Assembly (NCBI GenBank): GCA_963700635.1
Contig: CAVOYH010000003.1
Span: 1,376,001-1,440,000, forward strand
Source of the DNA: an uncultured Bacteroidota bacterium
GTDB taxonomy: Bacteria > Bacteroidota > Ignavibacteria > UBA10030 > UBA6906
Direction: 5' to 3'
DNA length: 64,000 nucleotides
Positions 4,629 to 22,283 of this stretch are shown here, piece by piece. Each line of letters begins with the position of its first letter. The stretch's first letter is position 1. Below the pieces are notes generated by a model. It worked only from the letters and a program-made list of their open reading frames with translations, searched no databases and was not told where the DNA came from. A program made the position numbers and the translations under genes.

Positions 4629-5513
4629 GTGTCTGCCACCACTTTGTTCCCCAGCATCTGCTTAGGGCAGCGTGTTCACCGCCTCGCGTGGATACTTCCG
4701 TCTGCTCTCCTTCTTACCCTTCCGGCGTTCGCCCAGGATCCCGCAGCTGACTTCCGCTCCAACTGTATGAGCTGCCATACCATCGGTGGTGGCCGGCTTA
4801 CAGGACCGGATCTTCAACACGTTACGCAACGTAAGGACCGTGCGTGGTTGACGCAATTCATACAAGATCCTAAATCGAGCATCGATGCCGGCGATCCGTA
4901 CGCCCTTGAGTTGCTCAGGAACTCACGCGGTGTGATCATGCCCGCGTTGCAGGGGATGACAAATGCCCGGGCGGGGGCATTGCTCGATCTGATCGATGCA
5001 GAGTCGATGCTGGCCCGATCCCAGTTTGCCGGCCTGCAGATCAGCGAACGGCCGTTTACTCCGCGGGATGTGGAGCTGGGACGCGGCATCTTCGAGGGCT
5101 CCGTCTCGCTTATCAACGGCGGCCCCTCCTGTATCTCGTGCCATGCCGTGCAGGGATTGGCGCTCTTCGGCGGTGGCACACTCGCCCCCGACCTGACAAC
5201 TGTGCTTGAACGATATCAGGGCCGGAAGATCCTTTCTACATGGCTCTCAGCACCTGCAACACCCACCATGAGTTCGGTCTATAAAACACATCCGCTTCAG
5301 GGTGATGAAGTGCTCGCACTTGTTGCGTATTTCCAGAGTACCCTCGCACGTAATCCCGACGACGTTTCCCCGGCCCGGCTCAACTTCATCCTCATCGGTC
5401 TGGTCGGAACACTTCTTGTCCTGGGTCTTCTGGATATCGTCTGGAGCAAACGCCTTCGTTCCGTGCGCCGCGCCATGGTGAGAGACAAACGATTGGAGGT
5501 TGTCAATGAGTAA
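4629..5513 (+). CDS. narC: Membrane-anchored diheme cytochrome c (NarC-like)
   Basis: AAGGAGG RBS, signal peptide, CMSCH and CISCH heme motifs, C-terminal TM helix; overlaps the narG start. Confidence 0.8.
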
Positions 5514-8500
5514 CAACGACAAGGTAAGCTGGATCAAAGACGAAGAAGATGTACACCTGCGGAGCTGGGAAGAATTTTATCGCAACCGCTGGCAGCACGA
5601 TAAAGTCGTGAGGAGCACTCACGGTGTGAACTGCACGGGCAGTTGCACCTGGATGATTCATGTCAAGGATGGTATTGTGACATGGGAAATGCAGGGACTT
5701 GATTATCCTTCGCTGGAACACGGTCTGCCCCCGTATGAACCTCGGGGATGTCAGCGCGGAATCTCCTTTTCCTGGTACCTGTACAGTCCGTTGCGCGTGA
5801 AGTACCCGTACATCCGGGGCGCATTGCTCGACCTCTGGCGCAAGGCACGGGCAGAACACGAAGATCCCGTGGAAGCGTGGAAATCGCTCGTCACTGATCC
5901 TGAATCGCGCGGCCGCTGGCAACGCGCACGGGGAAAAGGCGGATTCCGCCGTGCCAGCTGGGAGGAGGCACTGGAGATCACGGCTGCCGCAAACATTCAC
6001 ACCATCAAAACGCACGGCCCGGACCGTATCGCGGGTTTCTCCCCGATTCCCGCGATGTCCATGGTCAGTTACGCGGCGGGCGCCCGTCTGATGCAACTGC
6101 TGGGCGGCATCTCCCTTTCGTTCTATGATTGGTACTGCGACCTTCCCCCGGCATCACCCGAAACGTGGGGAGAGCAGACTGATGTGCAGGAATCGGCCGA
6201 TTGGTATAACGCCAAACTGCTTGCCGTCATGGGGTCCAACCTGAACATGACCCGGACGCCCGACTGCCACTTCGCGGCGGAAGCGCGTCACAACGGCACA
6301 AAAATGTACGTCTTCTCCCCCGATTTCAGCCAGGTTGCAAAATATGCCGACCACTGGGTGTCGGTGAACGCCGGACAGGACGGTGCGTGGTGGATGGCCG
6401 TCAATCATGTACTACTCAAAGAATTCCACCATGACAAGCAGACTCCGTATTTTCTTGACTACACGAAGAAGTTTACCGACGCGCCGTATCTTGTCGAGCT
6501 GACTGACGATGGGGGGGTGTATGAGGCAGGTCAGCTTCTTCGCGCCGGCCGCCTGCAGAAATACGCCGACGCCGAACACGGTGAATGGAAATTCCTCATG
6601 TGGGATGAGACGTCGCAGGCGATGAAGATGCCGATGGGCAGTTCGGGCTTCCGGTGGGGAGCGGAAAAAGGGAAATGGAATCTGCTGCTCCGTGATGGTG
6701 TTGATGGCACCGCCATCGATCCCCAGCTGACTTTTCTGAAAGATTCTGAAACGACGCTCCCGGTCCGTTTTGACAACTTTGCCGATGCCACAAGCCACAC
6801 GCGCCATGTACCGGTGAAATTTGTCACAACGAAAGACGGGAAGAGGGTTGCTGTTGCCACCGTCTATGACATCCTCATGGCTCAGTACGGCGTACCCCGC
6901 GGTTTGCCGGGAGATTACCCCGCCGATTACGATGACAGGGACAAACCCTTCACACCTGCGTGGTCGGAGAAGTACACAGGTATTGACCGGAAGGATCTTC
7001 TGAAGTTTGCGCGGGAATGGGGCAGTACCGCCATGCACACCAACGGCAAGTGCACCATCATCATCGGGGCAGGGATCAACCACTGGTATCACGCCAACCT
7101 GATGTACCGCGCCGGAATCCATGCACTAATGTTCTGCGGATGTATCGGTGTGAACGGCGGTGGCCTCGCGCACTACGTCGGGCAGGAGAAACTTGCACCC
7201 GGAGAACCCTGGGGCGCCATCGCATTTGCCAAGGACTGGTACGGACCGTCCCGCCAGCAAAATGCACCGAGCTGGCACTATGTGCATACAGACCAGTGGC
7301 GGTACGAAAGAGGGTTCACCGATTATCACACGGTGCCGGCGAAACAATCACCCGGTTCGCTCGCCCAGGGTCATACGATGGATGTGCAGGTGAAAGCCGT
7401 CCGCAACGGATGGCTCCCGTTCTATCCGCAGTTTAACCGGAATCCCCTGGATCTCGCGCGTGAAATGGAAGCCGGCGGTCTGACGAAACCGGACGAAATG
7501 GTCAACCAGGTCGTCAACCAGCTTACGAACCGCACACTCAAGTTCGCCGTTGAGGATCCGGATGCATCGGAAAACTGGCCCCGTGTCTGGTACATCTGGC
7601 GCGGCAACGCCCTCATGGCCAGCAGCAAAGGACATGAATACTTCCTTCGCCATTATCTGGGCACCCATGACAATGCTGTCGCCGAAGACATGGCGAAAGA
7701 TTCCGTAAAAGAGGTAACCTGGCACGATAAAGTACCACATGGTAAAATGGATCTTGTGGTGGACCTGAACTTCCGGATGGACACGTCCGCACTGTATTCT
7801 GACATCGTCCTGCCGGCGGCGACCTGGTATGAGAAGGCCGATCTCAACTCGACGGACATGCACAGTTTTATCCATCCACTCTCGGCGGCTGTCCCTCCGT
7901 GCTGGGAGTCGAAAAGCGACTGGGATATCTTCAAAGCAATCGCCAGAAAATTCTCCGAGCTTGCAGCCAATCACTTTCCCCATCCTGTCAGAGATATCGT
8001 CGCCACCCCGCTGGCCCACGATTCTGCCGCGGAGATCGCTCAGCCACAGATCAGGGATTGGATAACGGGTGAGGTGGAAGCGATTCCCGGCAAGAGTATG
8101 CCCAAACTGACGGTCGTGACGCGTGACTACAAGCATGTCTACGACCAGTATATCGCGCTCGGCCCTCTGGTGAAGAAAAACGGGCTGAACGCTCATGGCA
8201 CGGCCTATGCCATCGATGACTTCTACGATCATATGCTCGAGACAGGCCCGACGGTGTCCATCGATGGAACATCCTATCCGTCGTTGCTCAGGGACGTTGA
8301 TGTGTGTGACGCCATCCTGCAGCTTGCCACCGTGACGAACGGCGAGCTTGCATACCGCTCGTACAAGAACATGGAGGAGAAGGTCGGCCTGCCGCTTGCA
8401 CAGCTTGCCGAAAAGAACCGGGGCGTGCGCATCTCCTACCGGGAGCTGCAGGGCCGGCCCATGCGGCTCCTGAACAGTCCGATGTGGTCGGGACTGACGG

Positions 8501-20502: not shown

Positions 20503-21099
20503 ATGTCGAGCAAGGCCCTGAACCGTGTTCTGTTCGTCATTCTCGTATTCATGGTGGGTACGGTCTTTCTTGTTCGCCGGGATTACACCACGAAAAACGT
20601 GGAATTCCTGCCGGGGATGGTTTCCGGTGTTGCGTACGGACCACAATCCGCCAACCCGATTTTTCAGGATCGAAAGACCCTTCAGATGCCGGTGAAAGGA
20701 ACGGTGGCGCGGGGGTTTGAACCGCTGCTGTACACCCCGGATCCGGAAGGCGCGCTTCGGGCCGGGCTGGAGTTAGGCAGTTCGCTGGATCCGAAAGACA
20801 GCACCGGGGATCTTGCCCGCGGGGCGTTTGTCTTTAACACATTCTGTACACCCTGCCATGGATCAGGCGGAGCGGGCGATGGCCTGATTCCCCAGCGCGG
20901 ATTTCCGCCCCCGCCCTCGCTCCTTGCAGAGCATGCCGTCACCATGAAGGACGGGCAGATCTTCCATATCATCACCTATGGTCAGCGCACTATGCCTGCC
21001 CTTGCCGGGCAAGTGGTGCGCGACGATCGGTGGCGTGTGGTGAACTTTATCCGGACGCTGCAGAAACATTCAAAACCGACTCCCCTCGCCGCACAATGA
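20503..21099 (+). CDS. actE: Alternative complex III monoheme cytochrome c subunit
   Basis: PVKGTVARG, CTPCHG, GQIFHIITYG...MP, DRW; N-terminal hydrophobic anchor. Confidence 0.9.
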   Translation: MSSKALNRVLFVILVFMVGTVFLVRRDYTTKNVEFLPGMVSGVAYGPQSANPIFQDRKTLQMPVKGTVARGFEPLLYTPDPEGALRAGLELGSSLDPKDSTGDLARGAFVFNTFCTPCHGSGGAGDGLIPQRGFPPPPSLLAEHAVTMKDGQIFHIITYGQRTMPALAGQVVRDDRWRVVNFIRTLQKHSKPTPLAAQ

Positions 21100-22283
21100 A
21101 ACCCGAACCCCACATCCCGCATACCACGTTCCGAATGTCGGAACGGCTCCGGAAGACCCTTCTCGGCGTCACCCTTGCCGGATTGTCCATCGCGGCGCTT
21201 GGCGTCATTGTATCACCCGAACGTACGTGGCCCAATATTCTCCTGGCCAATTATTATCTGATGAGTCTCGGACTGGCGGGCGTGTTCTTTGTCGCGCTGC
21301 AGTATGTGTCCAATGCGGGCTGGCCGACGGCATTCCGGCGTGTGCCCGAAGCGATGATAACAACCATCCCGGTCTCCGGACTGGTGATGCTCGTTATCCT
21401 GTTCGGCATTCCCGCGCTCTACGAATGGAGCCACGTGTCGGCCGTGGAGCAGAGCAGGGTGCTGCAGGCAAAAGCAGGGTGGCTGAATATCCCCTTCTTT
21501 GCCGTCCGCACCGTTCTCTATCTGACGGTATGGGTTGTCCTTGCCTCCGCCATCGTCCGTTTGTCCCGAAAACAGGATCTGGATGGCGGGGTGGTGCACA
21601 CGCTCAGGAACAGAAAATTCTCGGCGGCATTTATCGTTGTCTTTGCTTTGACATTCACGCTTGCCAGCATGGACTGGATCATGTCGCTGGAACCCCACTG
21701 GTTCAGCACCATCTTCGGCGTGTACAATTTCAGCGGTCTGTTTCTGAACGGTCTTGCGACGATCACGTTGAGTGTCATTCTCCTGCGCCGGTGGGGGTTT
21801 CTGGCGGGGGTTGTCAGCGATGCGCATCTGCATGATCTCGGCAAACTTCTCTTTGCTTTCAGTACCTTCTGGATGTACATCTGGTTCAGCCAGTACATCC
21901 TCATATGGTATGCGAACATCCCCGAAGAAGTGCGGTACTACACCACGCGTTCACAGGGAGGGTGGCTGGTATTGACGATCGTGAATGTGGTTTTCAACTG
22001 GTTGATACCGTTTCTCATCCTGCTCCCCGCCTGGACGAAGAAAAACGAAGCGGTTCTGTTTCGCGTCTGCATCATTCTCATGATCGGTCACTGGATTGAT
22101 TTGTTCTGGATGATTCTTCCTCCCTTTATGAAAGGGAATCCCACGTTGTTCTTCTGGGAAATCGGTCCCATAGCTGCTGCAATCGGTGGATTCTTCCTGT
22201 TGACATTCAGGACTTTGGCCAGGCACAAACTCGTCCCGGCGAAGGACCCGTACCTCGCTGAAAGTATCACACGAGACCATTAA
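21096..22283 (+). CDS. actF: Alternative complex III membrane subunit F
   Basis: [32 protein letters not shown]...WMYIWFSQ...[12 protein letters not shown] overlap with actE. Confidence 0.92.

Follow-up and report, generated by a model that had tools for sequence, protein, structure and literature searches.

A nitrate reductase operon that includes an alternative complex III in an uncultured Ignavibacteria bacterium and in related loci

Results

The nar-act operon

The window analysed here is a stretch of 64,000 nucleotides from an uncultured bacterium of the Ignavibacteria (Bacteroidota; UBA10030; UBA6906; assembly GCA_963700635.1, contig CAVOYH010000003.1, positions 1,376,001 to 1,440,000). 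It contains one tightly packed operon of 13 genes, narC-narGHJI-narK1-narK2-actABCDEF, all on the + strand, which joins the genes of a respiratory nitrate reductase to those of an alternative complex III (ACIII) (Table 1). With the starts taken from relatives, the intergenic gaps in gene order are -8, 27, -4, -4, 30, -1, 9, -13, -8, -4, 3 and -4 bp, that is, 30 bp at most when three frame shifts are taken into account. A first reading of the DNA, made without database searches (the sequence-only reading), had described 13 co-oriented genes with overlaps or short gaps, 9 bp between narK2 and actA, and an unrelated secreted protein after actF. All of this is borne out, the secreted protein being a BNR-repeat protein whose gene starts 10 bp downstream of actF and which stands behind actF in 0 of 40 other loci.

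Table 1. Genes of the nar-act operon and candidate regulatory features upstream of it, in window positions.
Feature	Position	Strand	Remarks
narC	4629..5513	+	signal peptide, two class I cytochrome c domains, C-terminal membrane helix
narG	5506..9150	+	TIGR01580, 1507 bits; no Tat signal, cytoplasm-facing
narH	9178..10776	+	TIGR01660; homology stops at ~10653-10675, where the frame shifts; open reading frame continues into narJ
narJ, chaperone	10672..11225	+	PF02613; homology from ~10680, open reading frame only from 10743
narI	11222..11932	+	TIGR00351; four haem b histidines H63, H73, H191, H209
narK1, NarK-family major facilitator superfamily transporter	11963..13534	+	score below the TIGR00886 cut-off
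narK2, NarK-family transporter	13534..14869	+	frame shift at ~13620; open reading frame 13625-14869
actA, membrane-anchored pentahaem cytochrome c	14879..15544	+	5 CxxCH; without the sixth-haem domain
actB	15532..18561	+	Tat motif, molybdopterin-enzyme-like domain with four-cysteine motif, Fe-S domain
actC, NrfD-like quinol-binding subunit	18554..19978	+	H149, S175, D180, D261 and both proposed proton half-channels intact
actD	19975..20499	+	PF11821
actE, monohaem cytochrome c	20503..21099	+	1 CxxCH; N-terminal hydrophobic anchor
actF	21030..22283	+	likely start ATG 21096, overlapping the actE stop
sigma-70-like promoter	4465..4493	+	TTGACA-17-TATATT, 11/12 matches; ~135 bp before narC
imperfect palindrome GAC-N6-GTC	4494..4509	.	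beside the -10 box; candidate repressor site
second copy of GAC-N6-GTC	4588..4603	.	before the narC ribosome-binding site

One of the three frame shifts is found where narH ends, another where narJ begins and the third some 30 codons into narK2. Read literally, narK2 would start 90 bp past narK1 and NarH would have 532 aa. The relatives' genes are intact at these positions, the background in this genome is one frame-shifted gene in 40 tested, and the operon frame shifts may be either assembly error or decay. A comparison of NarG with that of a genome of the same genus gives 514 synonymous against 132 non-synonymous codon differences, which fits purifying selection. A fourth frame shift falls in the BNR-repeat protein (window 22294-24600), whose C-terminal sorting domain resumes in another frame past ~24250.

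A Thermus-type NarCGHI

NarG, NarH and NarI score above the cut-offs of their NCBIfam equivalog models. NarG keeps the FS0 cluster ligands H39, C43, C47 and C82 and the molybdenum ligand D212 (53/53 across copies), and the twin-arginine translocation (Tat) motif is absent from every full-length copy examined; together with the four histidines of NarI, these features identify a respiratory, cytoplasm-facing NarGHI. The identity of NarG is 63% to the Thermus protein and 47% to that of E. coli. In NarI, the four histidines and the glycine preceding the second are kept in 80/80 sequences, and Arg92 occupies, as in Thermus, the position of E. coli Lys86, one of the residues which we take to have a role in the quinol site; an arginine is found there in 79/80. 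Loss of this site as a mark of feeding by ACIII was consequently rejected, the site matching that of Thermus.

NarC carries CxxCH motifs at 46 and 168 together with the invariant Met104 and Met214, and two CxxCH are present in all 53 full NarC. Its predicted structure shows a long helix at the C-terminus besides two cytochrome c domains (predicted local distance difference test score 81), and a fold search matched only single cytochrome c domains. Being a dihaem, membrane-anchored protein that is encoded first in the operon and is about 30% identical to the c-type cytochrome opening the Thermus nar operon, it makes this enzyme a Thermus-type NarCGHI. The narCGHJIKT operon of Thermus thermophilus shares the narC-G-H-J-I order, the two transporters and the NarI arginine motif, but has no act genes behind it.

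The linker of the Thermus NarC is of low complexity, whereas that of the ACIII-linked NarC contains a motif conserved in 44/48, absent from Thermus and from six unlinked NarC. We do not retain this motif as an ACIII docking site, since it is missing from the divergent linked locus L211 and present in the unlinked L074 and L094; it is confounded by descent and is a lead only. In L074 (Acidobacteriota), NarC seemingly lacks the membrane helix and the genome has no ActC match, possibly a decay of NarC after loss of ACIII.

An intact alternative complex III

The six act genes stand in the order known for ACIII. Five CxxCH motifs are found in 63 of the 64 full ActA and one in 47 of the 48 ActE open reading frames (ORFs). 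ActC matches the known ACIII structures 6BTM, 6F0K, 8K9E and 6LOD with E-values of 1e-155 or better, and the residues of the quinol pocket, of the two half-channels and of the contact with ActD, listed from Rhodothermus marinus (quinol site H139, S164, D169 and D253; PMC5928083 and PMC8076601), are kept 24/24 in 50/50 nar-linked ActC. ActB gives only weak molybdopterin-domain matches; its four-cysteine motif (57/62 ActB) was rejected as a mark of the nar-linked type, the oxidase-linked ActB of the same genome having it too. ActF has no family match and is named only by homology (33% identity to the genome's oxidase-linked ActF) and position. Judged on sequence, the six-gene act cluster is an intact ACIII.

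This ACIII belongs neither to the Qrc complexes nor to the described oxidase-linked type. The window ActA scores 54 bits against the QrcA cut-off of 180, while a separate locus on contig C1 passes for both QrcA and QrcD; and cox genes follow actF neither here nor in any of 40 nar-linked loci. The complexes of Flavobacterium johnsoniae (6BTM), R. marinus (6F0K) and Chloroflexota (8K9E, 6LOD), whose electrons go to aa3/caa3 oxidases or auracyanin (PMC8552683, PMC5928083), share with it the six-gene order, the pentahaem ActA and the monohaem ActE; it differs from them in having no oxidase behind it, an ActA without the sixth-haem domain and an ActC that falls in a separate nar-linked group.

Conservation of the linkage

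The presence of narH and ActC was compared in 60 relatives. narH is present in eleven. In ten of them an ActC at 74-88% identity was found, eight times on the same contig; the remaining genome is 77% complete and its contig breaks off just past narK2. None of the 49 relatives without narH has an ActC above 63% identity. A wider scan used ten aligned NarI as query and kept the best 80 of 526 relatives, a set that was thereby selected by NarI likeness and that overlaps the 60 relatives. For 58 of these loci, 6 kb or more of sequence past narI was available; 54 of them have act genes behind narI or narK, the others being L074, L094, L100 and L101 (the last, with a weak non-ACIII match, was not counted as a carrier). 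The closest loci are titled Ignavibacteria, Bacteroidetes or Chlorobi metagenome-assembled genomes (MAGs), and the carriers are labelled Ignavibacteria/Bacteroidota, Acidobacteriota, Planctomycetota, Zixibacteria, Krumholzibacteriota, Deltaproteobacteria, Gammaproteobacteria (two) and Zhuqueibacter, so that the linkage is not peculiar to this assembly. In nine loci, actA lies within ~25 bp of narI and narK has moved elsewhere, which leaves nar and act as the fixed neighbours. No NarI-ActA fusion was found in the 80 loci, and seven junctions fall inside act genes. In L057 (Zixibacteria), NarK and ActA share one open frame of ~675 aa, a single case that could reflect a lost stop.

Behind actF, coxI, coxII, coxIII and SCO were found in 0/40 loci (one of which has only 105 bases left), moaA occurs within four ORFs in 8/40 (7 over cut-off) and narK in 7/40, which places ACIII inside the nar cluster. 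Cytochromes of 7-8 haems stand directly behind actF in three relatives (L007:13859-15502, L015:10001-11617 and L159:6245-7930), one of them like hydroxylamine oxidoreductase (PF13447) and another C552-like, and nrfH and C552-family genes are near in two loci.

Joint inheritance of nar and act

Fifty carrier genomes were compared, namely those of 49 of the 80 loci and this genome; the further locus L074 has no ActC match. Identity to the query is 65-88% for their nar-linked ActC and at most 64% for their second copies; a second ActC is of full type in 35, only distant in 4 and missing in 11. In the tree, one branch separates the 50 nar-linked from 39 other ActC with a support of 98 in the Shimodaira-Hasegawa-like approximate likelihood ratio test, and cox genes are present in 29 of 40 second-copy regions, one other having another heme-copper gene. 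NarG distances correlate with those of the nar-linked ActC (rho 0.62) and not with those of the second ActC of the same genomes (0.06, 20 genomes), a control that is rough because the second copies mix paralogues. Taken together, trees and distances indicate that nar and act are jointly inherited, with an ActC group of their own. L211, which was found without NarI selection, also falls on the nar side (ActC 62%, support 97). The NarG of this locus, by contrast, groups close to Thermus and to the operons lacking the link, so that the linkage either is old and was lost in places or was gained twice.

A second, cox-linked act cluster, the search for which had been advised by the sequence-only reading, is indeed present on contig C4 of this genome. 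Its ActC is 58-59% identical to the window copy, its ActD and ActE are fused, and behind the cluster come a monohaem cytochrome, SCO, coxI, III, IV and II and a haem o synthase; a similar arrangement has been described for Ignavibacterium album (PMC3362086). The nar-linked ACIII is thus an extra copy. A complete ACIII with neither nar nor cox match in the stretch examined was also seen at L111, L113, L117, L123, L140, L141 and L148.

Upstream region

The sigma-70-like site before narC is the best of 11 sites in 4300-24200; since shuffles give 9.5 sites, only its score stands out. The GAC-N6-GTC palindrome would be a candidate Rrf2-type repressor site, and an Rrf2 gene lies upstream of narC in 24/48 loci. 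As a general operator it was ruled out, occurring in 4/48 related upstream regions, not above shuffles (mean 1.25, max 5).

Genome context

The genome also encodes a Qrc, a Psr-like enzyme, cytochrome bd and an NrfA that has its own NrfH-like tetrahaem partner next to it. The QrcABCD operon (L003:6752-13401, G000 C1) has a GcvH-like neighbour and a sigma-54 regulator, and G000:C3:1099679-1102116 holds in a row a Rieske-like ORF, a cytochrome b match in two pieces and a hexahaem cytochrome. Twenty-one ORFs carry at least three CxxCH; clusters of them, with up to 20 CxxCH per ORF (G000:C3:1239240-1250546, C4:221730-224531 and C4:638181-639749), suggest extracellular electron transfer. Searches whose positive controls worked found no nirK, nirS or nosZ in this genome.

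The lack of a terminal oxidase noted by the sequence-only reading holds inside the operon, with the caveat that a two-gene heme-copper enzyme lies 8.7 kb downstream on the opposite strand (31030-32652 and 32685-33251). It has an Asp at the expected first CuB histidine and a subunit II without the CuA cysteines, which fits the description of gNOR in PMC11214002; nirK and nirS, as sources of nitric oxide for it, are missing. This pair and the BNR-repeat gene were excluded as members of the module, neither being conserved beside it.

Searches for molybdenum cofactor genes gave no moaA over cut-off and no match to moaC, moeA, mogA or MOSC in this genome; moaC was not found in 6/6 genomes of the genus, nor moeA in the 4/4 tested, two of these four rated 100% complete; another count for moeA gives 0 of 5. 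Yet narG, the Psr-like molybdoenzyme and mobA are retained, and it is possible that the genus takes up ready-made cofactor, a process for which a literature search gave no direct case. At L004:8190-16442, a YeeE/YedE-type pair and a rhodanese sit between psr and mobA.

Discussion

The model we propose, to which we give a probability of about 0.5, is that ACIII acts as the quinol oxidase of a Thermus-type NarCGHI. The only cytochrome c always found beside the nar-linked ACIII is NarC, which makes a path from menaquinol through ACIII, NarC, NarI and NarH to NarG the best reading of the operon. ActC would oxidise menaquinol on the periplasmic side, and the electrons would pass from ActB along the haem wire of ActA to ActE and on to NarC, which would take the place of the extra cytochrome c bridging ACIII to aa3-type oxidases. 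From NarC they would enter the two b haems of NarI and reach NarG by way of NarH, NarK exchanging nitrate and nitrite. The inward electron step would retain the two charges per two electrons of an ordinary NarGHI, and the proton pumping proposed for ACIII in general would be an added gain, paid by the ~0.5 V between menaquinol and nitrate. With menaquinol at -75 mV and nitrate at +420 mV (PMC6195509), our arithmetic would allow more than two charges to be moved for every two electrons. Direct oxidation of quinol by NarI may remain as a bypass. The suggestion of the sequence-only reading that this ACIII is dedicated to nitrate respiration finds support in the layout of the 54/58 loci, the separate ActC group and the absence of cox after actF.

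A bolder form of this model, which we hold as tentative and rather doubtful, is a Nar-ACIII supercomplex, the nitrate counterpart of ACIII-aa3, in which NarG would be fed through NarC from its own proton-pumping ACIII with a higher charge yield, the Thermus NarCGHI being a remnant without ACIII. The occurrence of a nar-type ACIII with the deeply branching NarG of L211 would fit this last idea.

Several observations weigh against electron delivery from ACIII to NarI. NarI keeps G72, H73 and the Thermus-type arginine, and its quinol site looks intact. Haems c with His/Met ligation are often of high potential, so that the step from NarC to haem bD could be uphill. Thermus possesses a NarC-type operon without ACIII, and its NarC has been proposed to send electrons outward in replacement of complex III (PMC7694296). 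The loci behind our conservation counts were chosen by NarI likeness, and 150 genomes sampled evenly from the phylum include 13 with narH, all with narC, which divide into 6 with ACIII, 6 without and 1 with the contig cut off; the module is thus one branch of the NarC-type reductases and not all of them. Four of the six ACIII-free genomes have no ActC match at all. In the 11/50 carriers without another ActC, the nar-linked ACIII may also serve oxidases. To this are added the unreliable root of the ActC tree (the QrcD outgroup has a branch length of 10), the three frame shifts inside the operon of this genome and its missing moaA, moaC and moeA.

A parallel branch, which we consider unlikely, would leave NarI to oxidise quinol as in E. 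coli and make ACIII a low-oxygen complex III for other periplasmic acceptors, such as microaerobic oxidases, octahaem nitrite reductases, NosZ or multihaem chains to the outside, NarC being a hub or an assembly factor; the Thermus NarC binds NarI and is required for assembly (PMC7694296, PMC10609526). The intact NarI site and the NarC operons that work without ACIII agree with it, as do the octahaem cytochromes behind actF in three relatives, nrfH and a C552-family gene close by in two, a nos cluster near the module in one, the 21 multihaem ORFs of this genome and the 11/50 carriers with only the nar-linked ACIII. Against this, 25/50 carriers have none of nosZ, nirK, nirS and the NrfA/C552 family (the latter present in 19/50), 35/50 own a second ACIII, mostly beside cox, and the neighbourhood of the module holds no conserved sink gene. 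The counts of nirS (0), nirK (1) and nosZ (9) in the 50 carriers (norC was outside this search), and the absence of all three here, also speak against the earlier idea that ACIII feeds downstream denitrification; moaC is found in 45/50, so genome incompleteness does not explain the missing nitrogen sinks.

It is still less probable that the module runs in reverse, electrons from Fe(II), reduced sulfur or nitrite oxidation entering at NarC and passing in part to nitrate or oxygen and in part uphill through ACIII into menaquinone. A similar narC-type cluster is the nitrite oxidoreductase of Nitrobacter (PMC7694296), although our NarG tree contained no Nitrobacter-type NxrA, the homologous Qrc runs from cytochrome c to quinone (PMC8076601), and this genome has many multihaem cytochromes. 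However, NarK, moaA and Rrf2 beside the module fit anaerobic nitrate respiration, and RuBisCO-family matches occur in only 3/50 carriers and not here (the reductive tricarboxylic acid cycle and Wood-Ljungdahl pathway were not searched), which weakly disfavours the reverse flow for autotrophy that had also been suggested. Finally, that ACIII once landed behind nar and that the block spreads by transfer without functional tie is very improbable: the carriers are patchy across phyla and L074, L094 and L100, close NarI relatives with 10 kb downstream, have neither adjacent act nor a nar-type ActC in the genome, but the tie survives the movement of narK before, between or after the genes, is kept at an ActC divergence down to 62-65%, and includes the in-frame NarK-ActA fusion of L057.

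A complex III between menaquinol and nitrate is not in itself new. Haloarchaea reportedly have a periplasmic Nar with a Rieske/cytochrome b pair. Nitrate reductases fed by complex III are also described in Streptomyces (Nar1 with bcc-aa3, PMC7931247) and Campylobacter (Qcr to Nap, PMC6195509). In all three systems the complex is of the bc type, and two have a periplasmic reductase, whereas here it is an ACIII, encoded in the same operon as a cytoplasm-facing NarG.

The sequence-only reading had offered the locus as a candidate for an undescribed system. The adjacency itself is in print: PMC10732223 reports 13 instances of nar genes upstream of a six-gene NrfD-like cluster among MAGs of Planctomycetota, and in five instances the cluster has oxygen reductase genes downstream of it. 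What stands is that the cluster was not recognised there as ACIII; its authors could match it to none of the complexes described and proposed either a nitrite reductase of the NrfAH kind or a generic component of a chain, and the main text contains neither 'NarC' nor 'ACIII'. MAG OFTM250 of its supplement carries the full module in our set (L077). By homology, the Planctomycetota cluster is an ACIII, to which our analysis adds NarC, the range of phyla and the separate ActC group. A literature search, with subscription papers outside its coverage, found no paper naming or testing a Nar-ACIII module and the adjacency only in PMC10732223; it is not described in the accessible portions of PMC3903129, PMC9386147, PMC5317091, PMC13608581 and PMC3362086.

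In conclusion, the nar-act module is real, conserved and built from known parts, and its adjacency, already in print, had been misread. NarGHI is taught as a quinol-fed loop without need of a complex III, in which much of the menaquinol-nitrate span is wasted. The conserved ACIII-nar operon suggests a different wiring in organisms that mostly go no further than nitrite, among them Ignavibacteria-like bacteria, Acidobacteriota and Planctomycetota, and the cluster that PMC10732223 presented as possibly a new nitrite reductase is re-read as ACIII. The module provides an oxygen-free setting for testing proton pumping by ACIII, which is proposed in PMC5928083 and called mechanistically unknown in PMC8552683, and it bears on the role of NarC. 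It possibly represents a more energy-efficient electron route to nitrate and, if the supercomplex is true, a wide range of uncultured bacteria specialised in reducing nitrate to nitrite would reach a charge yield of nitrate respiration above that of the textbook NarGHI.

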